Part shown: positions 4,839-59,382 of the stretch, piece by piece
Layout of the letters: each line of letters begins with the position of its first letter
Position numbering within the stretch: position 1 is the first letter of the stretch
From: Alloascoidea hylecoeti
Lineage: Eukaryota
Assembly: GCA_001600815.1 (NCBI GenBank)
Contig: BCKZ01000001.1
Coordinates: forward strand, 1,211,389-1,275,388
Direction: 5' to 3'
Length of the DNA stretch: 64,000 bases
Notes under the pieces: generated by a model
Told to the model about the DNA's origin: nothing
The model's database searches: none
What the model saw: the letters and a program-made list of their open reading frames with translations, nothing else
Made by a program: the position numbers and the translations under genes

Positions 4839-6079
4839 AACCACCAATTGCAATCACACAAACCTGTAAAACAAATAACTAGTAACTACCATTGATCAAA
4901 ATCTACAAGTTTCCTTTGCAGTGGATTCAATAAGCATTTCTCTCAGCAGTATTTCAATCACATATAAAAAGATCTTCAGTTGCAAGATTCGTGTATTAAT
5001 ATTATTTGAGAGTGGATGGTATAACGAATATGTGTGTAATTAATAATATTTTTTTTTTCTATGAATTTAGCATATATCTTTGAGAATAGCAAACATTAAT
5101 TTTCTACTAATATTGTACTTATAAATGTAATAAATATGTGCTTATGTAGTCGCATCACAGAGGGATGATGATACCTTATTGGATTAAATGTTTATCATTA
5201 TGAATGGTTTTATAAGTGGGAATACACTTGAAATATGGCATCATTTATTTGTGGATAACCTAATATAAATGTATATCCCTTTATAAATTCTCTAGAGTAT
5301 TGCTTTACACTTAACATTCTTGATTTATATATATGCATACATCGGCTCACAACAACCCTTACCCGACATAAGAGTCGTTTATAAGAATTCGAGAGAAGCA
5401 AATGGTGGATAAGACGAAGAGGCTGTAGTTTTAATTAACACATGTCAGATGCAGGGTAAGAGTAAGAAAATCCCCAACTGATTACAGTGTTGCCAGATAC
5501 AGTAACTGCATTTAAATCTTTTTATTCAAATGCATGCGATCGAGATCTATATGTAAATCTAAGATATATATTATCTCTCTCATCTGAGATCAAATTAGAA
5601 ATATAACGTTTGCTCATACTAAATTTACATTATAGAATACAACAGTTACAAATAATTGTAATCAATAGGTAGTTAGTTATATAGTATAAGCTTAAGGTTG
5701 CAACTATGCAGGTAGCCTCAAAATATAGATCCTGATATCGTTTTACAAAAGTTACATTTATTATTATTCAAGATATCTTGTTCTTTAGTTTAGTTTAAAT
5801 TTACATATGTTAAACAATTGGTATATATCATCATATTTATATTTATTAGCGCTACATGTTGGAATCTCCAAACAATTATAATTGCAGAGTCATACTGTGT
5901 GAAATTTACTTTACTATTAGGTATTAACATTACAGTTTTATCTAGGGTATGTTTAATGAGGTATTTTATAACTAGAACTTAAAAATGTAATTGTTATATA
6001 TAATTGCAAGGATTTGTTTCTTTTTCTCTTCTCTTCTCTTCTCTTTTCAAGTTTTAATTTTAAAGAAAAAATATTAATA

Positions 6080-7106
6080 ATGGTATCTTTAGACAATATC
6101 ATCAAACAAAACGTAGCATTGAGTGCTAATTTAGAGAACTTGGTAGTCGTTGTTTCTGGGGGAACAGGTGGAATTGGTGAAAGTACAGCTTATAAATTTG
6201 CCAAATATACTAAATCACCAACAATTTATATAGTTGGAAGAAATAAGGAAGCAGGAGCAAGAGTTCTTGAAAACTTAAAGAAAATTAACGATGACAATGC
6301 CAAATATTATTTCCTTAGCCATGATTTATCATTGATCACTGAAGCCGATAAGGTCGTCGAAAGTATTAAGGCAGTCGAATCAAAGGTTAATGTTTTATTT
6401 TTATCCTCTGGATTGATGGATCTCAGTAAGAAGAAAACCGAGACAGCTGAAGGAATTGAAAAAAGATTGGCCATCAATTATTATACTCGTTGGAGAATTG
6501 TTGATGGACTTGCTGATTTGCTTAAAGTTGCTGGAGATGCTGAAGAAACTGCAAGAGTTGTTAGTGTTCTACATGCTGGTGGCGAATTCTTTGCTAGACC
6601 AGATGATTATGGATTAAAGGACAGTAAGCTAATTATTAACACTAATATCAATGAAGTATTCAATAGAACTAACTATTTTTTTAGATTTTTCTTTTGCCAA
6701 TTATGGTAGTCATGTTGTTGCATTAAACTCAACAGCAGCTTTGAGATTTGCAAGAGTTTATCCAACTGTTTCATTTAACCACGGACATCCAGGGTTTGTC
6801 CAAACCGGTGTCTTAAGCAACTTACCATGGTATCTTAGATACCCTGCCACTGGTATTATTAAAATCTTTGGTGCTACTCCAGATGAGAGTGGTGAAAGAT
6901 TTTACTATCTATCTGCTACTGCTCCTGAGTTCGCAAGAGGTGGTCATTTAGTCAGTGAAAAAGATGAAGATGTCACTGATAAATCCAAGGTTCCTAAGAA
7001 GACCCCAGCTGGTACTCACGACTGGTGGAGTGTTGAATCTCAAGATGCAGCATGGTTACATACTTCAGAAGAGTTTGTTCTTGCCCGTGCAGCTACCAAG
7101 CATTAA
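6080..7106 (+). CDS. Short-chain dehydrogenase/reductase, paralog 1 (one intron, 6624..6684)
   Basis: Rossmann motif SGGTGGIG, plus GRN and HPGFVQT. The intron GTAAGC...ACTAAC...TTAG joins ORFs 6014..6709 and 6651..7106 in frame. First ATG at 6080. Confidence 0.9.
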
Positions 7107-8171
7107 ACACTCTGGAATGTTCAGTGATATCACAGCAATTTTCTAATAGTTTGGAGTTGTCAATACTTCATAATAATATTTATGTACATCTATATAATCT
7201 TGAATTAATTAATATGCTGTTAATAATATAATATAATAATAATAAACTTAAATTCTTATCGATACTTTATTAATTGAAGTGTATCTTGAAAAGTACGTAA
7301 ATTAAACATTATTGTTAATCCTACAATATCTTTTTCGATTTGCGCATACTCAATTGATTGATTATTGTATTAGCAGCATACTTGTATTAGCAGCATCCTT
7401 ATAACTTATATTTCCTTAATAAATTGCAGCTACAGTTGATTCAGTTCAACGATCTGATGATAATTTGGCCATCTTAAGAATGCCATCACTATCAGTTTGA
7501 ATAATAGTTGTACATGTATAATAACAAGTTTCAGATGGTTCTTGTAAATCTATAAGGTGCTTCGGAAAAGTGATAGTCGATTCTGACCTATTAATATTTA
7601 GAAAAATGACACATAAAAAAAGAAGTAAATATAAAGGTAAACGCCGGAGCACAAACGAATATAGGACACATGATAGCCAGAGGATAAAATTAAGATATCG
7701 ATGACTGATAACATTTCACTTATACATCTCTTTTGTATCTAAAGTGATCCTAGAGTGGCCATAAAGACAATTATACATGATTATAAGCTTTGATTGGTAG
7801 ATTTGTACTGTAGTACTGATTCCGTTACTCTAAACTTAATTGTAAAAGTTTTTGAATTATGAACAATACGGCAGCTTTAGATCAGCATTGATTCTACCAT
7901 ATATATAAACTATCCCCTCGCGGGAATATGTAGTGAGATCGATCGTCACTATAAAAATTGTGTTTTAACAACAGTGACTATTTTGCAAATGGATTTCGTG
8001 ATCACATAATTGCTATATCTACATATTAATGTGAGCGCACGTTCTTATACGCTTTAATCTATATAGCACTATAGATATATTGATACATAAAGGACAAGAG
8101 TACCATTCTATTTGTGCATTGATATTGCCATTATTTAATAATTATAAATATATCAATATATATGATCAATA

Positions 8172-9287
8172 ATGCCATCTTTACAACATATCATCAAGCA
8201 AAATGTTGAGGTCGGTACCAAATTAGAAAACTTGGTAGTCGTTATTACTGGTGGAACAAGTGGAATTGGAGAAAATACAGCTTATAAATTTGCAAAATAT
8301 TCTAAGTCACCAACAATTTATATAATCGGAAGAAATAAAGAAAAGGGAGCAAAAGTTCTTATAAATTTAAAAGAGATTAACGATGATAATGCAAAATATT
8401 ATTTCCTAAGTTATGATTTATCATTAATTTCTGAAGCTGATAAAGTAATCAATTATATTAAAGCAAAAACAGCAAAGGTTAATGTTATAATTTTATCTTC
8501 TGGATTTCTTGAGATTGGTAAAAGAAAAGCATCAATTGAAGGAATTGATAAAAGATTGGCAGTTAATTATTATTCCCGATGGAGAATTGTTGATGGCCTT
8601 ATAGATTTAGTCCAAAAAGCAGCGGAATCTAAGGAACTATCAAGAGTTGTCAGTGTTTTACATCCTGGTATTGAAGGGTTTGTTCACCCAGAAGATATTG
8701 GATTAAGGAAAAGTAATAACATTCTAGATAGGCATACCCTAATATAGGATATCTATAAATACAGTTTAACTAACGAATATTGCTTTCTTAGATGCCGGTA
8801 TAATTGACTATAATTTACATGCTAGTACTTTAAATTCAACGGCGGTTTTGGTATGTATGACAACGGAAATTGAAATTTAAACAGGAATCAGCAATCAAAT
8901 TACTAATTAACCATTATTATATCCTTATATTGACAATTGAAACAGAGATTTTCCAAAGAATATCCAAGTATTTCATTTACTCATGTTTATCCTGGAGTAG
9001 TCCAAACAAACGTTTTAAAGAATCTCCCATGGTACATTAGATATCCAATATCGGGTATTATGCTGATTCTGGGAACTACGGCAGAAGATAGCGGAGAAAG
9101 GATTTTCTATATATCAGGATCAAGCCAAGAATTTGCAAAAGGAGGGGATTTAGTTAATGGAGATTGTGATTCAATTCTTGAATATTCTAAAAATCGGGGA
9201 GGTTGGTGGAGAGAAGAAAGCATAAAGAAAGTATGGAAACATACTTTAGAGGAGTTTGATGGTGCAATTAATAATCCGTATCCTTAA
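8172..9287 (+). CDS. Short-chain dehydrogenase/reductase, paralog 2 (introns 8713..8791 and 8851..8945)
   Basis: TGGTSGIG motif and clear colinear similarity to paralog 1. Splicing GTAATA...TAG and GTATGT...CAG gives a continuous frame. Confidence 0.9.
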
Positions 9288-12627: not shown

Positions 12628-13917
12628 CATTGTATCTTATCGGTGAAGTAATCTTTTATAAGCTTATAAATGAATTATATACGTATTTAAGACTTATCTC
12701 TCTAGGTGATATATTATTATAAGTTATTGTTTGGTGTCATAAGGTCTAATAACTAATTTTTCATTAGACACTTTATTTTCTTTGGATAATAAGTACCCTT
12801 CATTGAGTGAATTCAATCCATTTGGAAGTACCTTAATAGGAATATGTTGAATTAATCCCTTATTAACAGCTTCAGCAACAACCGGTTGAGCACGTCTCAC
12901 AAATTCGGAAATTTCTGGGTTGGAAACCAGACCAGGTCCTCCCATAGAGTAAAAAGGATCACCAGATGAAAAATATGCTAAAGTTTGTGTAACTTTGACA
13001 TTTGGTTTAAGGTTTTTAATGTCATCAGATTTAAATCCTAATAAATTATCAAAAATAACAGGTTTTGTTGAAGAAACAGAATCATGAGTTGCTTGAATAG
13101 TGTTTGCCAATGAAATTGAATCTAAAGCATACACTATATCCTCCCCACCGATAGCTTTAATCTGGTTAACAACATCAGGATCACGATAATCAACAACAAA
13201 ATCTGCTCCTAATTCCTTCAATTCAGCATGATTTTTCTTAGATGATGTTGTAATGATCTTCCATCCAATAAGCTTACCAAATTGAACTGCAATCTGTCCT
13301 GTTGACGAAGCACCTCCCCAAATAAGTAGATATTTCTCTGATTCTTCCGCTTTGGTTTTACTTAATCCAAATGATCCTCCCATATTATGAAATAAACTGA
13401 TTAGAATAGTTACTAAAGAAACTCCTAATGAAGAAGNACCTTCAAAAGTTGTCGGAATACCTCTTGGAATATTATCGGATTCGGATCTATTCAGGCTATT
13501 CAATTTAAAAAATAGATGAGATTTAACAATTGCATATTGCGCAAAGGCTCCATTATGTGGNCCTGCTTTATTTGAACCATGTACAAACCCAACTCCAGCA
13601 TCACCAACCGAGATATTAGTAACTTCAGAACCAATTTTAACTGCAACACCAGCTAGATCGCAACCTGTGATGGCACCAGGTGCTCCATATAAGCCATAAA
13701 AGAGATGTTTCCAGTCTGTAGGGTTAATTGCAGCAGCTTCGATCTTAACAAGGACCTCATTTGGTTTTATGGATGGGACTGGGACTTCTTTAATAACGAG
13801 GGAATCAGTTCCTGTCACAGCGGCAGTCTGTTTTGATGGAATTGACATTTGGGTATATTTGATTTTCAATTGAAGATGAACGTAAAAAGAAGATTTGCAG
13901 CGAAACTTAGTCTTTTA
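12628..13917 (-). repeat. Left arm of 1290-bp inverted repeat (partner 19052..20341)
   Basis: Reverse complement of 19052..20341. Endpoints, N positions and mismatches all mirror (coordinate sum 32969). Confidence 0.97.
12724..13848 (-). CDS. Zinc-independent MDR-family enoyl/aldehyde reductase (YNL134C-like), copy 1
   Basis: Motifs INPTDWKH, GCDLAG, GAFAQY, LIWGGASSTG and KVSNEKLV. First ATG at 13848 (MSIPSKQ). Confidence 0.92.
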   Translation of the reverse strand: MSIPSKQTAAVTGTDSLVIKEVPVPSIKPNEVLVKIEAAAINPTDWKHLFYGLYGAPGAITGCDLAGVAVKIGSEVTNISVGDAGVGFVHGSNKAXPHNGAFAQYAIVKSHLFFKLNSLNRSESDNIPRGIPTTFEGXSSLGVSLVTILISLFHNMGGSFGLSKTKAEESEKYLLIWGGASSTGQIAVQFGKLIGWKIITTSSKKNHAELKELGADFVVDYRDPDVVNQIKAIGGEDIVYALDSISLANTIQATHDSVSSTKPVIFDNLLGFKSDDIKNLKPNVKVTQTLAYFSSGDPFYSMGGPGLVSNPEISEFVRRAQPVVAEAVNKGLIQHIPIKVLPNGLNSLNEGYLLSKENKVSNEKLVIRPYDTKQ

Positions 13918-16065: not shown

Positions 16066-16415
16066 TGTTGGTGACCTTATAATTAAAGTGATATCAAAGA
16101 TAACTACTAATTATAAACTAAAAACTTGAAAAACAAAAGAAAGAAAGGAAAGAAAGAAAAAATATTTATATAACCAAAAAGGACTTACCCTGAATTCAGC
16201 TAAAATAAAGCTAAATTCTCAAAGGATCAATACACACACAGTCATTTCACTTACTGTTGGGTATTAAGTTTTGTTAGATTCTATATTAAGCAAGGAATAA
16301 TATTTAGAAGTTACTATATAGTTAGCCATTTTCCCACTTGTTTTGACAAGACAGATATATATACAATAATATAAACAGATAATAACTAAGTTTCAAAGAT
16401 GTCAGATATCAAACA
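16066..16415 (+). mobile_element. Putative 5' LTR of a Ty1/copia element
   Basis: Starts TGTTGG and ends AAACA directly before TGGTAGCGGCG. The gag ATG lies inside its 3' end, as in Ty1. The left boundary is uncertain (alternative TGTTGG at 16255). Confidence 0.55.
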
Positions 16416-16426
16416 TGGTAGCGGCG
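16416..16426 (+). other. Primer-binding site, tRNA-iMet type
   Basis: TGGTAGCGGCG directly after CA. It is complementary to a tRNA 3' end CGCCGCUACCA (U72, A73, CCA) and close to the Ty1 PBS TGGTAGCGCC. Confidence 0.75.
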
Positions 16427-17239
16427 CTGGTATTGCAAGCACATCTAGTGTAGGTGCGGCAATTTCAACAGAAACGATCCGAGCTTTGCCCAAATTAGTG
16501 ATGGGAAAGAACAACGCATCCTTTGAACGATGGGATTATGCTGTAACGTCGACNTTACGGAGATATGGTCTGGCTAAATATATCTCGATGACAGAAGGAG
16601 CAGCTTTTTATGAGGATAATGGAAAGCTAAAGAAAACACTGTCGGAAAGAGAAGTTCTAGAGCATGACAATGTGATGACTATTTTGCTGGGATCAACAGC
16701 GGTCGATCTACAGGTCTACATTGATGTTAGAAAAGGTGCTTTAACAAGTTATGTGAACTTGAAGAAGGTATTTCACTACCAAAAGTCGGTACCTATTTGG
16801 TTAAGAGAGATCACCAGTTTAAGATTTGATGGTGATGAGACTATTATGAAATTTGTGACTAAATTTCAAAAATATTTGCGAGATCTTGAGAGTGGCGGAT
16901 TAGAAATGAGCGATGAGATTGCTGATTCACTCTTATTAAGTACATTATCAGGTCCTTATGAAAGAATCACCGATGATCTGATTAACAGTAATAATGGTAA
17001 GGATTATTCAGATATCCTAAATAGGATGTTAAATATTGAAGAGTCAATAAAAGATAAAGATACAGTTGTGATTGGAAAGGTCAATACACAACATAATGCA
17101 AATCCAAATCGTGGAAGAAATAATAATAATCGTGGTGGTTATAAAAATAATAATTATAGGGGTAATTATAACCAAAGAAAAGAACCACGTAAATGCTATA
17201 AATGTAATTCTTTAGATCATATTTATTGGAATTGTTGTG

Positions 17240-17271
17240 TGTGCTTGCAATACCAGCGCCGCTACCATGTT
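17240..17271 (-). repeat. Perfect 32-bp inverted copy of 16412..16443 (LTR end + PBS + gag start)
   Basis: TGTGCTTGCAATACCAGCGCCGCTACCATGTT is the exact reverse complement of AACATGGTAGCGGCGCTGGTATTGCAAGCACA. Confidence 0.97.
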
Positions 17272-17551
17272 AAAGTTCAAAGTGCCTGTTCTCCCAGTTG
17301 CGCCAAAAAGCCAATCGACTCTTTAGTGAACTGTTCTAAGAGTGTAATATATATCCAACATACTTTCGGGCTTTCTGATCTGGCTATGCATATTTGTATC
17401 TTTATAGTAAGTTTATACCATACTAACTATCGGACACTCCTAGAACTAATTTTCGGACGGGTTTGGTTCCTGAAGTTGCTCTATGTCCCTGCATATTAAC
17501 GGATCATATCGGTGATAGCCCGTCCTAAGTATGATACTCGTTAATATTTCA
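17268..17551 (-). mobile_element. Putative second, dissimilar LTR in opposite orientation
   Basis: On the minus strand it ends ...CTTTAACA directly before the second PBS, with TATATAT ~80 bp upstream of that end. A TG start is possible at 17551 but this boundary is uncertain. Confidence 0.45.
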
Positions 17552-19051: not shown

Positions 19052-20341
19052 TAAAAGACCAAGTTTCGCTGCAAATCTTCTTTTTACGTTCATCTTCAAT
19101 TGAAAATCAAATATACCCAAATGTCAATTCCATCAAAACAGACTGCCGCTGTGACAGGAACTGATTCCCTCGTTATTAAAGAAGTCCCAGTCCCATCCAT
19201 AAAACCAAATGAGGTCCTTGTTAAGATCGAAGCTGCTGCAATTAACCCTACAGACTGGAAACATCTCTTTTATGGCTTATATGGAGCACCTGGTGCCATC
19301 ACAGGTTGCGATCTAGCTGGTGTTGCAGTTAAAATTGGTTCTGAAGTTACTAATATCTCGGTTGGTGATGCTGGAGTTGGGTTTGTACATGGTTCAAATA
19401 AAGCAGGNCCACATAATGGAGCCTTTGCGCAATATGCAATTGTTAAATCTCATCTATTTTTTAAATTGAATAGCCTGAATAGATCCGAATCCGATAATAT
19501 TCCAAGAGGTATTCCGACAACTTTTGAAGGTNCTTCTTCATTAGGAGTTTCTTTAGTAACTATTCTAATCAGTTTATTTCATAATATGGGAGGATCATTT
19601 GGATTAAGTAAAACCAAAGCGGAAGAATCAGAGAAATATCTACTTATTTGGGGAGGTGCTTCGTCAACAGGACAGATTGCAGTTCAATTTGGTAAGCTTA
19701 TTGGATGGAAGATCATTACAACAGCATCTAAGAAAAATCATGCTGAATTGAAGGAATTAGGAGCAGATTTTGTTGTTGATTATCGTGATCCTGATGTTGT
19801 TAACCAGATTAAAGCTATCGGTGGGGAGGATATAGTGTATGCTTTAGATTCAATTTCATTGGCAAACACTATTCAAGCAACTCATGATTCTGTTTCTTCA
19901 ACAAAACCTGTTATTTTTGATAATTTATTAGGATTTAAATCTGATGACATTAAAAACCTTAAACCAAATGTCAAAGTTACACAAACTTTAGCATATTTTT
20001 CATCTGGTGATCCTTTTTACTCTATGGGAGGACCTGGTCTGGTTTCCAACCCAGAAATTTCCGAATTTGTGAGACGTGCTCAACCGGTTGTTGCTGAAGC
20101 TGTTAATAAGGGATTAATTCAACATATTCCTATTAAGGTACTTCCAAATGGATTGAATTCACTCAATGAAGGGTACTTATTATCCAAAGAAAATAAAGTG
20201 TCTAATGAAAAATTAGTTATTAGACCTTATGACACCAAACAATAACTTATAATAATATATCACCTAGAGAGATAAGTCTTAAATACGTATATAATTCATT
20301 TATAAGCTTATAAAAGATTACTTCACCGATAAGATACAATG
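19052..20341 (+). repeat. Right arm of 1290-bp inverted repeat
   Basis: Mirror of 12628..13917. Confidence 0.97.
19121..20245 (+). CDS. MDR-family enoyl/aldehyde reductase, copy 2
   Basis: Protein identical to copy 1 except TTAS versus TTSS, with two N-containing codons at the same positions in both copies. Confidence 0.92.
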   Translation: MSIPSKQTAAVTGTDSLVIKEVPVPSIKPNEVLVKIEAAAINPTDWKHLFYGLYGAPGAITGCDLAGVAVKIGSEVTNISVGDAGVGFVHGSNKAXPHNGAFAQYAIVKSHLFFKLNSLNRSESDNIPRGIPTTFEGXSSLGVSLVTILISLFHNMGGSFGLSKTKAEESEKYLLIWGGASSTGQIAVQFGKLIGWKIITTASKKNHAELKELGADFVVDYRDPDVVNQIKAIGGEDIVYALDSISLANTIQATHDSVSSTKPVIFDNLLGFKSDDIKNLKPNVKVTQTLAYFSSGDPFYSMGGPGLVSNPEISEFVRRAQPVVAEAVNKGLIQHIPIKVLPNGLNSLNEGYLLSKENKVSNEKLVIRPYDTKQ

Positions 20342-25565: not shown

Positions 25566-27204
25566 TTATATTTTAGGTCCAATCATATTTTCAGGTTTAA
25601 CCCATTCATAAAATTCCTTTTCAGTTAAAACACCCATCTCCAAAGCAGATTCTTTTAATGTAATTCCCTTTTTATGAGCATTTTTAGCAACTTTACTAGC
25701 TTTATCATAACCAATTTTTGGATTTAAAGCAGTTACTAACATTAAACTTTCATGTAATAATTTATCAATCTTTTCAGTATTTGCTTTTATTCCTTCAACA
25801 CAATGAATTCTAAAAGATTTTGTTGAATCTGATAATAATCTAATTGAATTTAATAAATTTTTAGCAATCAATGGTTTAAAAACATTCAATTCAAATTGTC
25901 CTGAAGCACCAGCAAATGTAATTGTAGTATGATTACCAAAAACTTGAGTACAAACCATTGTAATTGCTTCATTTTGAGTTGGATTTACTTTACCTGGCAT
26001 AATTGATGAACCTGGTTCATTTTCTGGTAATGATAATTCTCCATATCCACATCTTGGTCCTGATCCTAAATATCTTATATCATTTGCAATTTTAAATAAA
26101 CTTACAGCAAGAGTGTTTAATGCTCCACTGGTTTCAACCATTGCATCATGAGCAGCTAATGCCTCAAATTTATTTGGTGCTGTTTGAAATTCAACTCCAG
26201 TTAATTTGGAAACTTCTTTTGCAATTGATACATCAAAACCTTTTCTTGTATTTAATCCTGTACCAACTGCTGTACCACCTTGAGCCAATTTTGATAATCT
26301 TGGTAATGTATCTTGAATTCTTTCAATTCCATTTAATAATTGTTGTTTATAACCACTAAATTCTTGTCCTAAAGTTAATGGTGTTGCATCTTGTAAATGA
26401 GTTCTACCAATTTTAATTATTTTAGAAAATTGTTTTTCTTTATCTTCAAATGCTTTTGTTAATAATTTTAAAGATGGTAATAAATTATAATTAATCTCTA
26501 ATACTGATGCAATATGCATTACTGTTGGGAATGTATCATTTGATGATTGTGACATGTTTACATGATCATTTGGATGAACTGGAGTTTTGGATCCTCTTAC
26601 TCCACCAAGGAGTTCAATTGCTCTATTTGAGATGACTTCATTGGCATCTATTATTAATAAATAGGATTTAAATTGTTAGTTATTCCATATACCATATAAT
26701 TACAATATGCATACTCTAAAAATTGTCAGTTAGTTAGTGGATCCCCAATTATAAGAGAACAAGAAATATTTACCATATTTGATTGTGTACCACTACCAGT
26801 TTGAAAAACAACCAAAGGAAATTGATCATCTAATTTCCCATCAACGACTTCCTGTGCTGCAGTCTGAATAGCATTGGAAATCTTTGGATCCAATCCATAA
26901 GTTTCATTTACAATTGCAGCTGCTTTTTTAAGGATACCAAATGCTCGAATCAATGGTAAGGGTAAACGTTCAGTTACACCACCAATATCAAAGTTTTGTA
27001 AAGATCTATAGCTGAATTAGTTAAATAAGTTTATAAATATGATATATTTGGTTATACCTTTGTGTTTGAGCACCCCAATATTTATCGGCTGGAACTCTAA
27101 TTTCTCCGAAGGCATCTGTTTCAATTCTAGTGTTATCAGTCTAAAAAAAGAGCAATTGTTAATAAAATCATAGATAATGTATTAATATATTGCCCACACA
27201 CCAT
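25566..27204 (-). CDS. FUM1: Class II fumarate hydratase; exons 27204-27202, 27140-27058, 27005-26774, 26715 (1 nt), 26647-25566
   Basis: [60 protein letters not shown] and the signature [11 protein letters not shown]. Four GT-AG introns of 52-67 nt. The ATG-only first exon is less certain than the rest. Confidence 0.93.
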
Positions 27205-27845
27205 TATATACTATAAACCAAATAAGTTGAAAATAAATAAATTGTGAAAAAGAAAGATAAAAAACGTAAAAACTTCATATTTAAATGTGACTCCACTGGA
27301 CTGGGCCGACTGGGGTTATGATCATGAGTCAAGACAAGAGGGGTTGACATGCGACGCGGCTACGGATATATTATAAATTAATTTTAATATGCTATTATAA
27401 CGGACATTTTGACAAATTTTAAATGAATTCGAAGTTTTTCTATGTTTTAACTCAAGCTTAAGGTTTTATACTAAACTCCAGGATATTTCGTAGAAATGGC
27501 CTTAAACTTTTGATGAATAATTATCGGCCACCTCCTTCCCCAATTAAACATTCCTCTATACCATAAACTAGAGCAGTACAAACAAACCATAATTAACATA
27601 GAAAAAGTAAAAGATGTCTGTAAAGGGCGCAGCTGAATATTTAGTCCAAGGCGGTCGAAATTAATTGATAATATATACTAGTTACACCTTAAGCTTATGG
27701 TAATGCTATCCAGCTCAGACTAGCTGCCATATCTGGTGATAACAATAATTTAAAAAATTTATCCGTACAATTAAAATAGAAAAATCAATTAACAAAGCAA
27801 TTATAAACAAACAAAACATTCCAAGTCCATCGATTATTTCATTCA

Positions 27846-42421: not shown

Positions 42422-42429
42422 CCGGGTAA
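42422..42429 (+). promoter_or_regulatory. Reb1-type site in the 113-bp bidirectional promoter between THOC5-like and CDC23
   Basis: CCGGGTAA centred between the two divergent ATGs. Confidence 0.6.
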
Positions 42430-42478
42430 CTTTACTTCCAATATAACAAAAAACAGTGTATGTGTGAATATTCAAATA

Positions 42479-44321
42479 ATGATAAGAGTAAACACAGAAC
42501 AATTTCGTTCGGATCTACGTGGATCAATAGCATTATTATCATCTCTGTGCTTGTATCAAGCTGCAAAATGGTCAGGAGAAGCACTACTAGCACTTCCTCC
42601 ACCAGAAACAGATTTTCCAGCACCACAACCTTACTTACCACAGGGCAACAATACTAATGATGATATGATAAATCAGAAGGAGAATGATCAATTATTACTA
42701 GCTAAAATATATTTTGATTGTAAAGAATTTGATAGGGCTGCATTTCTTTTGAAGAATTGTGTTGGAACACGCGCTACATTTCTAAGGCTATATTCAAAAT
42801 ACATAGCTGGAGAAAAGAAGAAAGAGGAGGAATCTGATGGTGTTTTGGGATCCACCAGTGGGTCGGCATCAAACCAAAACTTGTTGCCAATAATGAGGGA
42901 TATTGATGCCTATATGAAGAAAACAAACACACCAGATCCATTTATAAGTTACTTGTTAGTTATTTTTCTCTCGAAATTGAACTTTTTACTGCTTAATATA
43001 CTAATTAATATGTTTTCTGTAACAGGGCAGGTATCATATATTCGCGTCAAAACAACGAGAATGAAGCGATTAAAATGCTAGTTCACTCAATTACGATGTA
43101 TCCTTATAACTGGGGAGCATGGAAACAGCTTTTATCGTGCTATGGCTCATTCGACAATTTGACAGCATTAATGACAGACTTACCATCAAATATAATGACA
43201 TCGATGTTCATGCTAGTAGCAAATCAGGAGTTCTTTAAAGCTGATGACAAAGTATTTGAACTATTATCAGAGTTAGAAGGAGTTTTCCAGCAATTTAACT
43301 TTTTAACAATTCAACGAGCATTGATCAATTACCATTCCCTTGAATACCTCGAATCTGAAAAGCTGTTTGATCAAGTTCTGAAGACAGACCCTTGCTGCCT
43401 TGATGACTTAGACACATATTCAAATATTTTGTATGTTCAAGATAAACAGGCAAAACTGTCATTTTTAGCGCATTTATCACTATCTATAGATCGATTCCGT
43501 TCTGAAACATGTTGTATAGTCGCGAACTACTATAGTTTGAAGGCTGAACATGAAAAGGCAATCATCTATTATAGAAGGGCACTGAGCTTGAACAGAGATT
43601 GTTTAAGTGCATGGACATTGATGGGGCACGAATTTGTTGAATTGAAAAATTCTTGTGCAGCTATTGAATCTTATAGAAGAGCTGTTGGTATGTGTTTCTT
43701 TTATTTGAAATAATGATACATAAAAGCTAATGATTTTTAGATACAAACAAAAAGGATTTTAGAGCATGGTATGGATTAGGACAAGCATATGAAGTTTTAG
43801 ATATGAACTATTACTCGTTATATTATTACCAGAAAGCAGCATCATTAAAGTGAGTAGATTCTTCTTTATTGACATTAGAAATTTTTCAGAATCGAATTCT
43901 AACTTCTGTTCATAGACCTCTCGACACAAGAATGTGGCAAGCAATAGGAAATTCGTACGAAAAACTATCCAATCTAGATGATTCTGTAAAATCCTATCGG
44001 CGCGCACTGACACTGTCCCCCACTGATCCTATCTTATTATACAAACTTGGCCAGTTATACGACCGAGTAAAAGATCATTATAATGCATTTCAATATATGT
44101 CGATGTGTCTTGCGGAAGAAGAAGCAGAGTGTGTTACTGATGAAACCTCGAAAGCTAGAATATGGCTCGCGCGATATCAAGTTCGGAGAGGAGACTGGGC
44201 TAAAGCCAGCGAGTTGGTAGATCAGATGACTATGGGAAGTAAATCAGACTTAGAAGAAGCTAAAAGTATTGGGAGAGAGGCGAAAATGCGATTGCGATCA
44301 GGAAATCTGTCTGGTAAATGA
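42479..44321 (+). CDS. CDC23: Anaphase-promoting complex subunit APC8 (introns 42955..43025, 43688..43740, 43850..43915)
   Basis: [67 protein letters not shown] motifs; splicing gives a continuous frame. Confidence 0.94.
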
Positions 44322-45139: not shown

Positions 45140-45223
45140 GTGAGTTCATTGTTCTAATTATACCAATATTTCAATTGATTCTTTGTTATTGAAACCCAAC
45201 TACAGTTTTCTAACACATATTAG
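45140..45223 (+). other. Putative 5'-UTR intron of PRP8
   Basis: AG|GTGAGT...TTCTAAC...TTAG ends 11 nt before the ATG; 84 nt. After splicing an in-frame TAA lies just upstream, so the intron is non-coding. Confidence 0.7.
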
Positions 45224-45234
45224 TTATTTACATA

Positions 45235-48200
45235 ATGAGTCGGCTACCACCCCCTCCACCTCCTGGATGGTCTGTTCCTCCACCTCCTCCACCTCCTGGT
45301 AGATCATCTGGATTGACTGCAATTTCATCGGGATTTACCCCTGGTCCCCCTCCTGGTCTTCCCCCTGGTCCTCCTCCACCCACTAAACCTACACAACCAT
45401 TCAAATCTAGAAACGATACTTTAGAAGAAAAGAAGAAAGTTTGGATACAGTTACAATCTCGTAGATATGGGGACAACACGTTAAAGTCTAAAAAGTCTAA
45501 AATTCAGAAAAATCCAAAAAAAGAAATGCCTCCAGAGCATTTACGAAAAATTATTGAGAACCATGGAGATATGAGTACCAAGAAGTATGCTGCGGATAAA
45601 AGAGCATATATAGGTGCTTTGAAATTTATGCCACATGCGGTCCTCAAGTTATTGGAAAATATGCCTCAACCTTGGGAACAGACACGCGAAGTAAATGTCT
45701 TATACCATGTTACTGGTGCTATTACATTTGTTAATGAAATACCAAGGGTTATAGAACCCGTTTATAGAGCCCAGTGGTCAACAATGTGGACAATGATGAG
45801 AAAAGAGAAGAAAGATCGAGCTCTATTTAAAAGAATGCGCTTTCCACCCTTTGATGACGAAGAACCCCCGTTGAGTTGGACTGAAAATATTGAAGATGTC
45901 GAACCTTTAGAAGCGATTCAAATGCCTTTAGATGAAGTTGAAGATAGTAGTGTAATCGAATGGTTTTACAATCATTTACCATTAAGTGATGATCCACAGT
46001 TTGTGAACGGTACAAGCTATAAGAGATGGCATTTGAATTTACAACAACTGGCAACTTTATATCGTCTTGGAAGCTCACTTTTATCTGACATTGTTGATAA
46101 AAATTACCTTTATTTATTTGATAACAATGCTTTTTTCACAGCTAAAGCCTTGAATATTGCTTTGCCTGGTGGTCCCAAATTTGAACCACTATATAAGGAT
46201 ATAAATCCGGATGATGAAGACTATGGTGAATTCAATGCTATAGACCGAATTATATTCAGAGCGCCGATACGAACAGAATATCGTGTTGCATTCCCATATC
46301 TCTATAATTCTTTAGCAAGATCAACTCATCTTAGTATTTATCACGAACCACAATCTGTCTATATTAAAAATGAAGATCCGGATCTTCCAGCGTTTTTCTT
46401 CCACCCTGAATTCAATCCAATTACACCAATTGAGGGTCAAAAGAATGAAAATGCTGTTGTCGATTTCAATAAAAATGGCGACGAAGAAGACGATTTTGAA
46501 CTACCAGAGATTAAACCTTTCCTTCACGATAATGAATTAGAAAATGAGGATACTGCTTCGGCCATTACCTTATGGTGGGCACCATATCCATTCAAAAGAA
46601 AAATGGGTCATACAGTTAGAGCGCAAGATGTTGCTTTAATTAAAAGCTGGTACCTGGAACATCCGCCAGTTGATGAGAATGGACCATTACGAATTAAAGT
46701 TAGAGTTTCATACCAAAAGTTATTGAAAACTCATGTTTTAAATGCTCTGAAGACAAAGAAGCCTTCCTCTCAACGAAAGCAAAAATTATTAACAGGCTTG
46801 AGAGGTACTAAGTTCTTTCATTCTACTAAAATTGATTGGGTTGAAGCTGGTCTCCAAGTTTGTCAGCAAGGTTTTAACATGCTTAATTTATTGATTCATC
46901 GTAAGGGGTTGACTTATTTGCATCTTGACTACAACTTCAATTTGAAGCCTACAAAAACATTGACTACAAAAGAAAGAAAACGGTCTCGCTTTGGTAATGC
47001 TTTTCATTTAATGAGAGAAATATTGCGAATCACCAAACTGATTGTTGATGCTCATGCTCAATATAGATTGGGAAATGTAGATGCTTTCCAACTAGCTGAT
47101 GGTATATATTATGCTTTGAATCATCTGGGCCAATTAACGGGTGTTTACAGATACAAGTACAAAGTGATGCATCAGATCCGTACTTGTAAGGACTTGAAGC
47201 ATCTTGTTTATCATCGATTTAATACAGCAGGGGTTGGTAAAGGTCCTGGTGTGGGATTCTGGCAACCTGCTTGGAGAACATGGTTATTCTTTTTACGAGG
47301 AATGATACCACTCTTAGAGAGATGGCTCGGAAATCTCCTCGCTAGACAGTTTGAAGGTAGGCATTCAAAAGAGGTTGCAAAGACCATAACAAAACAAAGA
47401 GTCGATTCATACTATGATATAGAATTACGAAACTCTGTCATGAATGATATTCTGGATATGATACCTGAAGGTATCAAGCAATCCAAGTCAAAAACTGTTT
47501 TACAACATTTAAGTGAAGCCTGGAGATGTTGGAAAGCTAATATTCCTTGGAAAGTTCCAGGATTACCGCCGCGTGTTGAAAATATCATTTTACGATATGT
47601 TAAAGCTAAAGCTGATGGTTGGATTTCCCTTGCACATACTAATAGAGAAAGAATTAAAAGGGGTGATACTGTGGATAAGGCTGTTGCGAAAAAGAATCTT
47701 GGACGATTAACCAGATTGTGGATCAAAGCAGAGCAAGAGAGGCAACAGAATTGGGAAAAAGATGGTCCATATGTCACAGCAGAAGAAGCAGTGGCCATTC
47801 ATTCGATGATGGTCCATTGGTTGGAAAGCAGAAAATTTAGTCCTATTCCTTTGCCACCATTATCTTATAAGCATGATACAAAGCTTCTGATTCTAGCTCT
47901 AGAAGCTTTAAAAGAATCATATAGTGTCAAGGGTAGATTGAATTCTAGTCAGAGAGAAGAACTTGCCCTTATTGAACAAGCATATGATAATCCATATGAA
48001 TGTTTAACACGGATCAAAAAGTTTTTGTTAACTCAACGTGTTTTTAAGGAAGTTGGGATTGAGATGATGGATCACTATAATTATATAGTTCCTGTTTATG
48101 AGGTTGATCCCTTGGAAAAAATTACAGATGCTTACTTGGATCAATATCTGTGGTATGAAGGAACAGCTAGAGGATTATTTCCTAATTGGGTAAAGCCAAG

Positions 48201-51200
48201 TGATACTGAAATCCCCCCACTATTGGTTTATAAATGGTGTCAAGGAATCAATAATTTAGAAGAAGTATGGGATACTAGTAATGGTCAATGTAATGTTATG
48301 ATTCAATCAACTTTAAGCAAAGTAGCTGAGAAAGTTGATCTTACTTTGTTAAACAGATTGTTGCGTCTTATCGTGGATCCAAATATTGCTGATTACATCA
48401 CTGCAAAGAATAATATTGATCTAGCCTATAAAGATATGAGCCATCCAAACAAATATGGCATGATTAGAGGTCTACAATTTTCTTCATTTGTATTCCAATA
48501 TTATGGCCTCGTAATTGATCTGTTATTACTTGGCTTGCAACGAGCTACTGATATCGCCGGTGCTCCTAATCAACCAAACGAGTTCTTACAATTTGCAGAT
48601 GTAGATACTGAAAATAGGCAGCCAATAAAATATTATTCTCGATATATCGACAAAATTCACATGTTCTTCAGATTCACAGAGGAGGATGGAGCCGAACTAA
48701 TCCACAGATTCCTAACAGAAAATCCGGATCCCAACTTCGAGAATGTAGTTGGATATAATAATAAGAAGTGCTGGCCCCGGGATTGTCGCATGAGATTAAT
48801 GAGACAGGATGTTAACTTAGGTAGAGCGGTTTATTGGGAATTGAAAAACAGGTTACCACGATCTTTGACTACAATTGAATGGGAAGACACATTTGCTTCT
48901 GTTTACTCTAAGGATAACCCTAACTTATTATTTGAGATGGCTGGCTTTGAGGTTCGTATATTGCCGAAGTGTAGGGCCGAAACATTTGACTCATCAAGTG
49001 ATGGTGTATGGGATCTAGTTGATCAGTCTACAAAAGAAAGAACTGCAAAAGCTTATCTTCAGGTCTCGGAAGATGGCATCGCCAAGTTTGTTAATCGAAT
49101 ACGACAAATATTAATGTCATCCGGTTCTACCACTTTCACAAAAATTGCAAATAAGTGGAATTCCGCGTTGATTGCCTTATTCGCTTATTATAGAGAGGCA
49201 ATAATTTATACAAACCCTCTTCTTGATGCTTTGGTGAAATGTGAAACTAAGATCCAAACAAGAGTGAAAATCGGTTTGAACTCAAAAATGCCTTCTCGTT
49301 TCCCTCCCGCTGTTTTTTACACCCCTAAAGAACTGGGAGGCTTGGGTATGATAAGTTGTAGCCATATATTAATCCCTGCTTCCGATTTACGATATTCCAA
49401 ACAGACAGATACAGGTATTACACACTTTAGATCTGGTATGACGCATGGTGTAGATGAAGAAGAGAGAACCATCCCTACATTGATTAAATATATGACTCCG
49501 TGGGAACAAGAATTTTTGGATTCTCAAAGAGTTTGGTCTGAGTATGCCATCAAGCGACGAGAAGCACAAGAACAAAACCGTCGTTTAGCGCTTGAAGATC
49601 TAGAAGACAGTTGGGATAGAGGTTTCCCTAGGATCAATACATTGTTCCAAAAGGATAGAAAAACATTGCCTTATGATAAGGGTTATCGTGTTAGAACAGA
49701 GTTTAAACAGTTCTCCATTGCAAGAGTAAATCCTTTTTGGTGGACCCATAATAGGCATGACGGAAAACTCTGGAATCTGAATGCATACAGAACAGATGTA
49801 ATTCAATCACTTGGAGGTATTGAAACAATTCTTGAGCATACATTATTTAGAGGAACCGGTTTTGAAAACTGGGAGGGTTTGTTTTGGGAAAAAGCTTCTG
49901 GATTTGAAGAGTCCCTAAAATTCAAAAAGCTGACCAACGCTCAGCGATCCGGTTTAAGTCAAATTCCAAATCGTCGGTTCACACTATGGTGGTCACCAAC
50001 TATTAACCGTGCTAATGTTTATGTTGGGTTTGTCGTACAATTAGATCTAACAGGTATTTCTTTGCATGGTAAAATTCCAACATTGAAAATTTCTTTGATT
50101 CAAATATTCAGAGCACATTTGTGGCAAAAAATTCATGAAAGTGTTGTTTTTGATTTGGTTCAAGTTTTGGACGGTGAATTGGATAGTCTTGGAATTGAGA
50201 GTGTACAAAAAGAAATGATTCACCCAAGGAAATCATATAAAATGAATTCTTCTTGTGCTGATATACTTATGACCAGTAATTATAGATGGAGTGTGCTCGA
50301 GCCATCGCTATTGAACGACGGCAAAGAAGTCTTTATGGAAGAAAGTGCCAACAAATTTTGGCTTGATATCCAATTGAGATATGGAGATTATGATTCTCAT
50401 GATATTTCTCGGTATACGAGGGCCAAATTCCTAGATTATACAGGTGATACGGAAAGCAAATATCCATCTGCTACTGGTGTGATGATCGGAATTGATCTAG
50501 CTTATAACATGTATGATGCTTATGGCAACTGGATCCCCGGATTGAAACCTTTGATGAAACAAGCAATGTCTACAATAATGAAATCCAACCCTGCTCTGTA
50601 TGTTTTGAGAGATAGGATCAAAAAAGGACTTCAAATTTATCAATCTCAACCTCAAGAAACTTTTTTAAACTCTCAAAATTACTCAGAATTGTTTAATAAC
50701 GATATTCAATTTTTTATTGATGACACTAACGTTTATCGTGTTACTGTGCATAAAACATTTGAAGGGAATTTAACAACGAAACCTATCAATGGTGCCATCT
50801 TTATTTTCAATCCTAAAACCGGTCAGTTGTTTTTGAAAATTATTCACACGTCTGTTTGGGCAGGCCAAAAACGATTAGGACAACTAGCAAAATGGAAAAC
50901 TGCTGAAGAAGTTGCAGCTTTGGTCAGATCATTACCAAAGGAACAGCAACCAAGCCAACTAATTGTAACAAGAAAGACAATGCTTGACCCCTTGGAAGTT
51001 CATATGCTTGATTTCCCAAATATTTCTATAAGACCATCTGAATTGCAGCTCCCATTCCAAGAAGCAATGAAAATTGAGAAGATTGCTGATACTATTTTAA
51101 AAGCTACAGAGCCACAGATGGTATTATTTAATCTGTATGATGATTGGTTGAAGAGCATCAGTCCTTTTACAGCATTCTCTAGATTACTACTTATCCTTAG

Positions 51201-52392
51201 AGCTTTACATGTTAATCAAGAAAAAACCAAATTAATTTTGAGACCAGATAAGAACGTCGTTACTGAAGAGCATCACAATTGGCCTACTTTGACAGATGAA
51301 GAATGGGGATTGGTTGAACGTCAATTAACCGACCTCATTCTAAACGATTATGGCAAGAAAAACAATGTAAATGTCGGATCATTAACAACTTCCGAGATTA
51401 GGGATTTAATTTTAGGTCAAGAGATCAAAGCACCTTCTATCAAGAGACAAGAAATTGCAGAGATTGAAAAACAGAATGATGATCCCTCGCAACTGACTGC
51501 CCTTAAAACTAAAACCAAAACCGTCCATGGAGATGAAATTGTTGTTGTAACAACTACGAACTATGAACAGCAGGCTTTTATGTCCAAGACCGAGTGGAGA
51601 GCTAGAGCTGTTTCAACGACTAATCTTCACCTGAGATCGAAAACGATTTATGTCGCATCAGTGGAAGATGCTGAAGCCGATGAAAACTCTACGTTTATTT
51701 TCCCTCAAAACATCTTAAAGAAATTTATTCAAATTTCGGATTTAAGATCGCAAATTGCTGGCTACTTGTATGGAGTATCACCCCCTGATAATGATCAAAT
51801 AAAGGAAATCAAGTGCATTGCTTTGGTGCCTCAGATTGGGGATCAGAAGACTGTTCGTTTGCCACATCAGTTGCCTTCGAATGAATCAATGCTCGAAGGA
51901 CTCGAACCCTTGGGCTGGATTCATACTACGCCTTCTGAATCCAGGTACATGACTGCCGTTGATATGACAAAGCAAGCACAAATTATGACCGAACATGACA
52001 CTTGGGGTTCCAAAGCCGTTACCATGTGTGTTGCTTTCACCCCTGGTTCGGTATCTTTGTCGGCATATAGTTTGACTCCAAAAGGGTTGGAATGGGGCGC
52101 TCATAACAAAAACATCATTTCTGAAGAACCTGAAGGATATAACCCGCAATTTGGTCAGAAATGTCAATTGCTTATATCTAATCGTATTGTTGGGTTTTTC
52201 ATGACTCCCGAGAATGATATTTGGAATTATGCGTTTATGGGTGCTGGATGGAATGAAAATATTACTTATCAACTCAAGTTGGATACACCATTACCCTTTT
52301 ACCATGAGTATCATAGGCCCGTGCATTTTTCTTCTTTTAACGAGCTAGAAGGGAATGATGTTGGCGTTGAAAATGAAGATTTATTTGCTTAA
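45235..52392 (+). CDS. PRP8: U5 snRNP splicing factor Prp8, intein-free
   Basis: 2385 aa with [38 protein letters not shown] and a C-terminal MPN domain (GWIHT). Confidence 0.99.
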
Positions 52393-54881: not shown

Positions 54882-57800
54882 TTAATCTTTTTTAGACTTT
54901 TTTGGAACCCTGCATAACCAATATAGAGCCAATGCTCCAAACACATTAAAAATAATATAAACAATCATCAAACCAAAATTCCTCCATCTATCACCATATG
55001 AAATCTCCAATAAGCTCAAATAGCTATTTGTACTAGAATAAGAGCAAAATTCGCATTCACTTGTAGCATTTGGAGACTGGAGATAACCACCAGCAACGCT
55101 CATATATGGCTCCATATATTGATAACACGTCAAATTATTCGGAGGTTCTAGATTAACAAATTCAGTTTTTGAACAAACAACAGGAGCATTTGCAAGTGCC
55201 GTTGATAACAATCCAGATATATAATAAGTGAACGGTGAAACACGATACATGAAGATCCAAAAATGAGGCATGTTATCGGGAGTTGCCATAACACCACAAA
55301 AAAGTAATGTAAATGAAAACAATATGTTAGCAATATTACTAGCAGTATCTGCATCGCTCATTCCAGCAATAATCATATGGGCAAAGGTGCAAGTAAATAT
55401 ATAGAATGATACTATATATAGGAAAAACAAAGCACCTCGTTCTGAAGTTGAATCAGTATAAGTTGTATTATTTTGAAGGCCAATTGGATAATAAAAACAA
55501 AAGAAAGCACCAACTGACATGAGAAACTCCCAAGGAATTTCCAGAAATATATTTGATAACATGAACACTTGCCAGGAATAAGTTTTGGATGGTCCTTCTC
55601 TAACCTCATATAAAGATCTTTGGGTAACAAAATTAGGCATAATTTGTTGCACTAAACTACCAAAAGAAGTAGTGGACATGAAAACAGCAAACATTTGATT
55701 TTGAAGGCCTTGTTGAGAAGTCCCAGCTTTCCAAAATGAGAAGCCAATAAATAAAGTGGTGATATCACATAAAAAGAATTTTGACCAAATGTAAGTAGGG
55801 TCTCTCCAATATTGCTGCCAAATACGCTTGTAAACAATTCTAAATTGTTCATAAAACGATGCAGCATATGGTTCTCTCATTTCACGACCAACAGTATCAC
55901 TAGTGTGCTCCAAAATTAAACGGTTCGCCATTGAATCTAATTTTGTTTGTAACTCTTCATGCTCAGGGCTTTGTATCCAAACTTGGTGATAATCATATTT
56001 AGCTTTAGAACCAGGAGCAGCACCTATAACTTCAAGCATCCATTCAGCTGGGTTGGCATCCGGAGGACATGGATCAGCATCATATCTTTCAAAATAATCA
56101 ATTAGAGTCCTCGAATTTTCACCGATATCCCCATAATAAACAGTTTGACCGCCTTTTTGTAAAAATAATAGCCTATCAAATTGTTGAAATAGCATGGCTG
56201 AAGGTTGATGAATAGTACATAAAATAGCCTGCCCATTATTAGCAAGTTTTCTCATCAAGGTACAAATTGACCAAGCGGTTTGGGAATCAAGACCTGAGGT
56301 TGGCTCATCTAAGAATAACAATAACTCTGGTTTGGCTGCTAATTCAACTCCAATTGTTAACTTCTTTCTTTGTTCAACATTTAAGCCTTCACCAGGAATA
56401 CCAACTACTGCTTCTGAATAAGCTTCCATTTCTAAGATACGAATAACCTCATCAACGTATGATATTTTTTCTTCTCTTGGTATACTTTTAGGTTGTCTTA
56501 GTAAAGCACTAAAAGTCAAAGCTTCTCTAACAGTAGAGGTGGATAAGTGAAGATCCTGTTGTTGAACATAACCAGTTTTTCTCTGAAAAGAGCCATCTCT
56601 TGGATGACCATTAACAAGCATATCACCGGCTACGACACCCATTGTAACACGATCAGCCAGAACATCTAACAGCGTAGTTTTACCAGCACCCGTGGCACCC
56701 ATTAAAGCAGTTAATTTACCAGGTTGTACCCAACCATCAACGCCATCAAGAATTCTTCTAGGTTCACCTTTAATTTTGATATCATAGGTAACGCCTTTCC
56801 ATTGGAATAAGCCTTTTTGTTGAGCCAGATTCAGTATACCATTCTTCGTGTCTGAGTTTATATCACCATCAATAATAGCTTTCTCACCAGCATTATTGGA
56901 TTCAATATCATTTATCTTATTTGATTTTTGTAAATCATTTCTTTTAAAAATTAAAATTTCACCCTTTGATTTGGATCCAGATACATATTCAACACCAATT
57001 AAATAAACAGCGGTGAAAAATATAAAAAATGCAATAATGATACCAATATTTCTCCACATGTGTTTTGGATAATATTTAAACGACATCTCAATATACCTCT
57101 CGCCACGAACAAATGATTCTCCAGATATAGCACCAACAGTGGAACAAGAAATTGCATCAGTTGGAACTGAAGAATATCCTGTCCCAGATGGAATATAAAC
57201 AGAACAAGGAAACTTTCGACCATCAAATTCATTGACCATTAGAGTTTCAAACCCATAACCAATTGGATTTATATAATTGATCCACCTAAACCATGGGTGC
57301 ATATTTTTAATAGGTATTGCAAATCCAGTATAAATGACCAAAGCTAGAATTAAAAGTGATGCAAAAGGCATAGCTTGTTCAATAGTTTTTGTAAATGAAG
57401 CAATTGTTCTGAAGATACTAGACATTGTCATTGTTGTCAAAAATGAGAACAAAAAGAATATAAAAAAATGGCCTGGTGATCTTCTTAAATTAGACATGAA
57501 ATAAAGAGATAAGTTAAACATAATAGCAGTAACAACTTTTGTTGGAAAGTCACAAATCATTGATGAAGCGGCTTCACAAAATGGATGATAAAAAGCATAA
57601 CGACTATGTTTTTCAACGATATCTCTCTGATTATATAGGGTAAAAATTTCTAAAGCGGATGAAAAAGCATTCATCAAAACAGCAAAGAAAAGTAAAGCAC
57701 CCCTACTGTAAAAACTTGAAGTACTATTTTCCAAATTATAGAAAATACTTGAAATTATCAATGCCATTCCAGTATTACCAAACACAGTGGTAAAAGCCAT

Positions 57801-59382
57801 TGAAAAATCACCCCGAAGTCTTTGAAAACCTCTCATAACACAAATATCAATTTGCTTTTTTAATGATAATGTATATGGGGATTTGGGCGATAAATGCTTT
57901 GATTTTTTTGCCAGTCTTGCATCAATAAAATGGTTATAACTTTCACCGCCAGTCACAAATTCAGCATTATACTCATTTATTTCCATTTCTAGCTTTTTAA
58001 AGGTTTCACTTTCCTTCCATCTTTGTGAGAACTCATCAGGAGTTCTTGGGACCATATTCTCAAAACCTCGCCTAGTAACACGTTCCGAAGGGCTTGTTAA
58101 AGAAGTTAAAAAATCACCGGTAGTTTGTCTCTCAGGACATTCGAATCCCATTTGTACAAAAAATTCCTTTGCATCGGCAGTTGGTCCAAAGTAAATCTGT
58201 CTACCCTCATATAAAACAACCACTTTATCAAAAGTATCATAGGAGGATTGTGAAGCCTGATATAATGAGACAAACATCGTTGCTTTTGTTGTTTTCGCAG
58301 TTCTTCTCAACATGTTACAAAATTCCAATGCAGTTGCAGAGTCTAAACCACGAGTCGAGTTATCCCAACATTGTACTGGAGAACCTCCAAGAGCAGCTTC
58401 TGCAATTGAAACACGTTTCCTTTCACCACCGGAAACACCTCTAATATAAGCATCACCAACCTTAGTATTAACTGTGTGAGACAGACCTAATGATGCCATC
58501 ATAACCTCACGCATATGGGTTGCCCATTGCTCTCTAGTAATACCTGCAAGTCTTGTTCTTGGAGTTCTTGCCAATGAAGCAAATTGTAAAGTTTCTCCTA
58601 CAGTTAAATGAGGGAAATGAAATTCAGTTTCCGCATTATAAATAACTTCACCCCTAAATTCACTTGACATTTCTTCATAGCTAATACCTTGATAGTTTAT
58701 CTTTGTATCATCTTCAAGATGAAACCCATAAGTGTCACCGCTAATTGTTTTCAAAAAGGTTGAACATCCACTACATATTTGAAAAATTGCAATTAGAATC
58801 CATAATTTAGATACATCTTTAATGCACGATAAAGCGCTAAACTTACCTTCCTGGTCGTCCTAAGACTACACACATTTCACCAGCTCTAACGAGGCCGTCA
58901 AATCCTTGTAGAATATTAACTTTTCTTTGTTTTCTTTTATTTCCAAACATTCTCTTGATCATATCACCACTTGCGATTAAAATATTGAAAACAGTTTTTT
59001 GATAATCAGACTCAGTCCCATAACCATAAGCCCCAAGATCTTTGAAAGATACACCGCAGGTAACAGAAGTATTATTTGAATCTCTATTATTTAAATTCAT
59101 TATTTGTTCTGCCCAAGCTTGAGCACTAAATTCGGGATCATTTGGGTTTAATCTTGGATTTGATGTATCAATAAAAGGATTTATATCCCCAAAATCTTCT
59201 TCGGATGCATGTGAGGCTTCTGATCTTGATGTTATTGTTCTTGCAAGCTTCAATATTGTTTCTGTTTGTTGTGGGGTAAAGTTTATTTCCGATTCATCAC
59301 CGAATTTTTCATTCCCACTATATTGAGTTGGAGACCCTTTTATTTTTGTTGATGAGCCAGAGCTCTCAGTCATTGATACCAT
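54882..59382 (-). CDS. PDR/ABCG-family multidrug ABC transporter (intron 58771..58846)
   Basis: Spliced Walker A1 GRPGSGCST, VSGGERKRVSIAE, CWDNSTRGLD; NBD2 GATGAGKTT, LNVEQRKKLTIGVEL, FLDEPTSGLD; NBD-TMD-NBD-TMD layout. Confidence 0.96.

Follow-up and report, generated by a model that had tools for sequence, protein, structure and literature searches.

Exons of a single nucleotide have been described in a plant and in fungi. The APC11 gene of Arabidopsis thaliana contains the single-nucleotide exon A333, which was proven by cDNA and by mutagenesis (Guo and Liu 2015, PMC4674806). The annotation had shown a single 422-nt intron there, and the exon is found 333 nt into it; constructs with A>T, A>G or A>TT changes or with a deletion served as the mutational proof. 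The authors argue for intron definition, with one intron leaving after the other, and cite recursive splicing at zero-nucleotide exons, where AG|GT serves as a ratchet point, as a model (PMC4674806). The P450 genes of the CYP621A family in Fusarium carry a one-nucleotide exon, a G within AGGGT (Nelson and Syed 2026, PMC12940212). The arrangement is kept in 20–24 orthologues, with SRA reads from two species confirming it. The long-read annotation of Coprinopsis cinerea contains 13 one-nucleotide exons in 13 genes, and omission of such microexons is stated usually to lead to premature stops (PMC12230235). One-nucleotide exons thus recur in fungi. A search of literature that included few subscription journals turned up nothing on microexons, or on recursive splicing, in budding yeasts. 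Two introns also share one gap in the stwintrons, the spliceosomal twin introns of filamentous fungi. In these, a splice signal of the outer intron is split by the inner one and becomes functional only once the first excision has taken place.

The stretch of DNA analysed here (the window, 64,000 nt) contains a class II fumarase gene on the minus strand, from 27204 to 25566. We assign to this gene a five-exon structure in which the fourth exon is a single adenosine, genuine and constitutively spliced; reading the DNA and its homologues, we put the probability of this structure at roughly 0.8. The exons, introns and candidate branch sites are collected in Table 1. The exon ends, the two introns around the lone A and their motifs had been given in a preliminary description of this DNA, and all of them match the sequence to the base.

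Table 1. Features of the fumarase gene model on the minus strand (introns 3 and 4 are called introns A and B in the text)
Feature	Position	Strand	Length (nt)	Description
Exon 1, coding part	27202..27204	-	3	ATG start codon alone, donor GTGTGT directly after
Intron 1	27141..27201	-	61	GTGTGT...TTATTAAC...TTTTTTTAG
Exon 2	27058..27140	-	83	27 residues and first two bases of an Arg codon
Intron 2	27006..27057	-	52	GTATAA...TAACTAAT...CTATAG
Exon 3	26774..27005	-	232	ends with a full codon; aligns to 1yfm_A residues 55-130
Intron 3 (intron A)	26716..26773	-	58	GTAAAT...CACTAACTAACTGAC...TTTTTAG, tail CACTAACTAACTGACAATTTTTAG
Intron A branch motifs		-		overlapping CACTAAC and TAACTAAC; branch A at 26734 or 26730
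Exon 4	26715..26715	-	1	single A, first base of Asn codon A|AT
Intron 4 (intron B)	26648..26714	-	67	GTATGC...TAACTAAC...AATAG, tail TTATTAATAATAG
Intron B branch motif		-		TAACTAAC; branch A at 26676
Exon 5	25566..26647	-	1082	starts with AT, ends ...MIGPKI and TAA stop; aligns to 1yfm_A residues 132-488

The 3' end of exon 3 reads ...ACA CAA TCA AAT ATG (...GSGTQSNM), so that the reading frame is kept through its last base. Exon 5 begins with AT GCC AAT GAA GTC. Its first two bases finish a codon of the form xAT, and the exon is readable in frame only from its third base. Between the two exons lies a block of 126 nt in which the junction of acceptor and donor (26722-26709) reads TTTTTAG-A-GTATGC, with exactly one base between AG and GT. 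The acceptor of intron A is the first AG past the branch (26717-26716), 14–18 nt from the branch motif. The acceptor of intron B is likewise the first AG past its branch (26649-26648), at a distance of 28 nt from the motif. The fumarase introns are comparable in length to three likely introns elsewhere in the window (61–100 nt), and the 126-nt block is about twice the normal intron length here. The donors of introns A and B differ from the GTATGT and GTAAGT donors of two other likely introns in the window.

The arrangement resembles that of APC11. Both genes have a lone A between AG and GT that is needed for the reading frame and is absent from the annotation (PMC4674806). APC11 is a plant gene with an exon established by constructs, while the fumarase exon is predicted from DNA sequence and is flanked by short yeast-type introns with ACTAAC branch motifs. 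The CYP621A exon is closer in being fungal, and there too the flanking exons are one base out of phase within a highly conserved motif. In both cases the gap has about double the length of an ordinary intron (139 nt in CYP621A, where the median is 56; 126 nt here, beside 52–67 nt), and both exons were detected by comparison with intronless relatives (PMC12940212). The CYP621A base is a G in the middle of a Gly codon, whereas the fumarase base is an A at the first position of an Asn codon. The CYP621A arrangement is shared by its orthologues, whereas that of the fumarase is found in none of the relatives examined. The host also differs, being a budding-yeast-type fungus, and the gene encodes a core metabolic enzyme. 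Coprinopsis is a basidiomycete whose genes each have many introns, and its one-nucleotide exons are given as a catalogue without locus-level analysis (PMC12230235). Recursive splicing shares with the predicted splicing of the fumarase the placing of an acceptor beside a donor and the removal of a long gap in two successive reactions (PMC4674806). It keeps no base between the introns, whereas the fumarase gene keeps one coding base, and splicing at a zero-nucleotide exon is ruled out by the A at 26715 between AG and GT. Stwintrons also have two introns in one gap, removed consecutively. A stwintron is ruled out here, since introns A and B each have an uninterrupted donor, branch and acceptor. 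The fumarase exon is probably a further case of a rare kind that has already been published. An earlier claim that such an exon is very rare holds as to rarity, but the kind itself is on record in three publications (PMC4674806, PMC12940212, PMC12230235).

The Pfam domains PF00206 (Lyase_1) and PF10415 (FumaraseC_C) are precomputed on window ORF P0001, and 1yfm_A is matched with E = 1.8e-176. We take GSGTQSNMN to be a conserved stretch, and GSSxMPxKxN to be the signature loop, of class II fumarases. The loop is encoded in exon 5, and GSGTQSNM followed by N is complete only with the lone A. By these sequence features, the predicted product is a class II fumarase (FumC / FUM1). It is of the short form: its N-terminus, Met and 14 residues, has no presequence and matches that of short-form yeast fumarases such as P0020. 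A tree of 28 rows places the protein, with weak support (58/91), beside the 404–480-aa forms of Ascoidea, Saccharomycopsis, Pachysolen and the Candida/Scheffersomyces group. A second form of 491–503 aa with a longer N-terminus occurs in Ascoidea, Saccharomycopsis, Pachysolen and Scheffersomyces coipomensis. Since short and long forms coexist in these four species, a second fumarase in this organism is plausible by analogy, and loss of the short form could then be tolerated. None of the other rows has as long an end branch as the window's fumarase (0.42; the median is 0.12), and AT-rich composition may contribute to this length. Directly upstream of the gene, an ORF of 24 codons (MKFLRFLSFFFTIYLFSTYLVYSI) occupies 27204-27278 (-), and its TAA stop shares bases with the fumarase ATG (TAATG). 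Behind codon 20 of this upstream ORF, a weak GTTTAT donor would, if used, be in frame with exon 2.

Comparison with the yeast fumarase structure 1YFM leaves one residue unaccounted for between the ranges covered by exons 3 and 5. The residue following NM is Asn in all 78 metagenome loci that have both flanking pieces (AAC in 47, AAT in 31) and in all 119 homologues listed (P0002-P0120). Only A fits as the exon 4 base, because exon 5 already supplies AT and the residue is the invariant Asn. With the lone A, the five-exon model has 1401 nt and encodes 466 aa with no internal stop. The protein aligns without gaps to Saccharomycopsis P0020 (82.2% over 461 aa) and to Pachysolen P0036 (81.7% over 460 aa). 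Joining exon 3 to exon 5 with omission of the A gives a stop at codon 123; with intron B retained the stop falls at codon 118, and with intron A retained at codon 122. We enumerated all GT/GC-AG introns around the site as single-intron alternatives; 19 of them are in frame and free of stops, and GSGTQSNMN is damaged in every one of the 19. The preliminary description had called the exon an obligatory one that restores M-N-A-N-E. The missing residue, the invariant Asn, the failure of every single-intron rescue, the agreement of the DNA contigs and the intact coding sequence described below all favour this; the inclusion of the lone A in the mRNA is the part that we infer from the DNA.

The frame might be restored in some other manner, by a non-canonical splice site shifted by one base (ATG-GAT, encoding Asp), by RNA editing, or by ribosomal frameshifting on a singly spliced message. 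A one-base shift requires TA as the donor or as the acceptor, and it places Asp where the 78 metagenome loci and the 119 listed proteins uniformly have Asn. The two-intron solution has its full complement of canonical signals, and we regard restoration by any of these other routes as extremely improbable.

The two sets of splice signals stand out in the window as a whole. The branch-type motif [AT]ACTAAC occurs 16 times on both strands (128 kb), and two of the 16 are inside the 126-nt block. Searched with a strict pattern for complete short introns, the window gives 15 matches. The strict tandem pattern, two introns one base apart, is matched solely at the fumarase site, with two alternative upstream donors. 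A second tandem site at 39289 (-) appeared only with a looser pattern and was dropped, as the sequence there looks non-coding. Two full sets of intron signals are very unlikely to have arisen by chance. No further copy of intron A or B is present within the window. Their mutual alignment score of 4.5 makes them no more alike than shuffled sequences (mean -1.65, sd 3.3, maximum 9). With neither a copy in the window nor mutual similarity beyond shuffles, an origin of introns A and B as mobile or duplicated introns was set aside.

An insertion or deletion in the assembly at or near the junction would explain the frame difference as an artefact, and an assembly indel had been named earlier as an outcome that would overturn the one-base exon. 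Contigs of three DNA runs, X1, X2 and X4, span 26388-27300 with no differing letter and no gap, which contradicts such an error. Their depths are 6.3 (X1), 21.8 (X2) and 9.7 (X4, contig of 1208 nt). The comparison used assembled contigs of three runs from three studies and not raw reads. Runs X1 and X2 are possibly the source data of the window itself, and this leaves the artefact some ground. Run X4, a wood-decay metagenome of a different sample and study that is not marked as source data, is independent of the window and identical to it here, and X1 and X2 agree with it. An assembly indel is therefore unlikely. It also leaves the two full sets of intron signals unexplained, and we consider the chance of an artefact to be slight in the extreme. 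One X4 contig has a joint skipping from 26835 to 27064; its shorter side has 26 letters and five of 41 letters are mismatched, and it was read as a foreign contig. Matches in the metatranscriptome X8 (seven short pieces, 90–99% alike, running into unlike sequence) were taken as fumarases of other organisms.

The gene could also be a young pseudogene. The block would then be, or have been, one intron of 126 nt or just intron A, and the loss of one exonic base would have left the gene frameshifted and dead; the AG-A-GT would be coincidental and a second fumarase would be active. Species with the short form do carry a longer second fumarase, and the window's fumarase sits on a long end branch. 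The coding sequence speaks against decay. Columns that are invariant among 27 named homologues are all kept, 208/208 in exon 5 and 20/20 in exon 3 (228/228 in total), and there is no other stop or frameshift in the 466 codons. Of nine homologues scored in the same way, none is better kept than the window's fumarase. There is no sign of decay in the fumarase coding sequence. Furthermore, a single intron would have twice the normal length, and two full signal sets at the right spacings would be very unlikely to occur by chance within it. Of the four possible bases, the stranded one would happen to be the one needed for the invariant Asn. We keep a pseudogene as a quite unlikely reading, mainly because a second fumarase is plausible in the organism.

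In the five-exon reading, introns A and B would act as independent units, each with a GTA-type donor, an ACTAAC-type branch and the first downstream AG. The use of the first AG after the branch as acceptor is the rule of yeast-type spliceosomes. The two introns should be recognisable independently across the intron, because each has its own donor, branch and first-AG acceptor. The acceptor of intron A and the donor of intron B are one base apart, a spacing that hardly leaves room for two spliceosomes at once and makes their successive action very probable. As Guo and Liu argue for APC11 (PMC4674806), introns A and B would very probably be removed one after the other. The order of removal would be immaterial, as either order would give the same mRNA. 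Removal of both introns would give AUG-A-AUGCC, in which the Asn codon is AAU and the invariant active-site stretch is restored. The predicted mature junction is AATATG-A-ATGCCAAT.

Skipped or intron-retained forms would meet a premature stop, and such mis-spliced forms would presumably be degraded. This raises the possibility, proposed earlier as an off switch, that the one-base exon is regulated, with the skipped share (stop at codon 123, presumed NMD) tuned to set fumarase output. The early stops at codons 123, 118 and 122, in the skipped form and in the forms retaining intron B or intron A, fit such a role. In an engineered plant invertase gene, a one-nucleotide exon was left out of 33% of transcripts (PMC4674806). 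Against regulation, NMD substrates arise from any mis-spliced intron-containing gene. The 146-nt region around the block is not unusually structured as RNA (z = +1.92, with an equal or better fold in 195 of 200 shuffles), so that no structure drawing the splice sites together was seen, and no repeats or extra conserved elements were found in it. A regulated exon thus appears unlikely, and the five-exon gene with a constitutive fourth exon is the reading we carry forward.

Relatives were collected from metagenome contigs and from short ORF fragments. The contig scan kept 80 loci, of which 78 have both pieces flanking the site, and L024 and L049 are without the upstream piece. An intron at the exon 4 site is present in none of the 78 loci, where both pieces are contiguous. 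The fragments examined were the best 120 of 534 with E <= 1e-8. Among these 120, divergence right after NM is seen only in P0126, which is the window's own. Two of the best 120 end at NM and 11 end before the motif; 59 continue through at least nine residues, and 21 stop or diverge elsewhere within the motif. A further 26 of the 120 follow NMNxNE or NMNxNEV and then diverge. The point of divergence of these 26 marks a widespread fungal intron four codons downstream (window position 26637/26636, GAA|GTC), and the window's fumarase is without an intron at that position. The 119 other listed fragments likewise have no intron at this site. No collection searched contains a relative above 83% identity, so that the lack of a shared TAG-A-GT reflects sampling and does not contradict the exon. 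The best relatives are budding-yeast proteins, 79–83% identical. From this distribution, the intron pair at the exon 4 site looks lineage-specific. A fuller scenario can be drawn, in which the one-base exon is young and lineage-specific, and a forced order of reactions together with skipping and NMD sets the output of the presequence-less fumarase, making the site a control point at the level of splicing. We regard this combination as doubtful.

If transcripts confirm the five-exon structure, the active-site stretch that is invariant in this central metabolic enzyme would contain a one-base exon. The closest homologues of the fungus's fumarase come from budding yeasts. If the exon is in addition young and lineage-specific, a yeast-type spliceosome that uses the first AG would have to cope with a donor one base behind its acceptor. 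The site would offer a natural and compact substrate for asking what the minimum spacing between acceptor and donor is, and in which order abutting introns are removed. There is also a consequence for annotation. The fumarase gene is present in the searched protein collections only as two ORF fragments, P0001 of 329 aa and P0126 of 75 aa. Predictors that disallow one-base exons will break such genes or call them pseudogenes.

The surroundings of the gene are those of an ordinary fungal nuclear region. The window is AT-rich, with 25–38% G+C in 2-kb steps, and contains genes for PRP8, Cdc23, a PDR-type ABC transporter, a four-domain ion channel, GPI2 and others, several of them split by short introns. 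The PRP8 ORF (45214-52389, +) is uninterrupted, with 2392 aa and all eight expected Pfam domains. Cdc23/ANAPC8 (42422-44318, +) and the PDR-type ABC transporter (54885-59388, -) each extend over overlapping or adjacent ORFs, and their short introns have GTATGT or GTAAGT donors and CTAAT-type branch motifs. Short introns are numerous in this yeast-like, Saccharomycotina-type genome, and they lie well inside genes and not just at 5' ends. Two short-chain dehydrogenase genes are placed in tandem (5972-7103 and 8166-9284, both +), and in both the adh_short domain is apparently split by an intron at a similar point. One of these introns has 61 nt (GTAAGC...AACTAAC...TTTTTTTAG) and the other 79 nt (GTAATA...TAACTAAC...CTTAG). 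Two zinc-type alcohol dehydrogenase ORFs of 396 aa each are inverted relative to each other (12727-13914, -; 19055-20242, +), with identical ADH_N and near-identical ADH_zinc_N Pfam scores. An ORF with a copia-type gag domain (16390-17496, +) is located between them, and the layout suggests that the pair was duplicated recently, in inverted orientation, around a retroelement.
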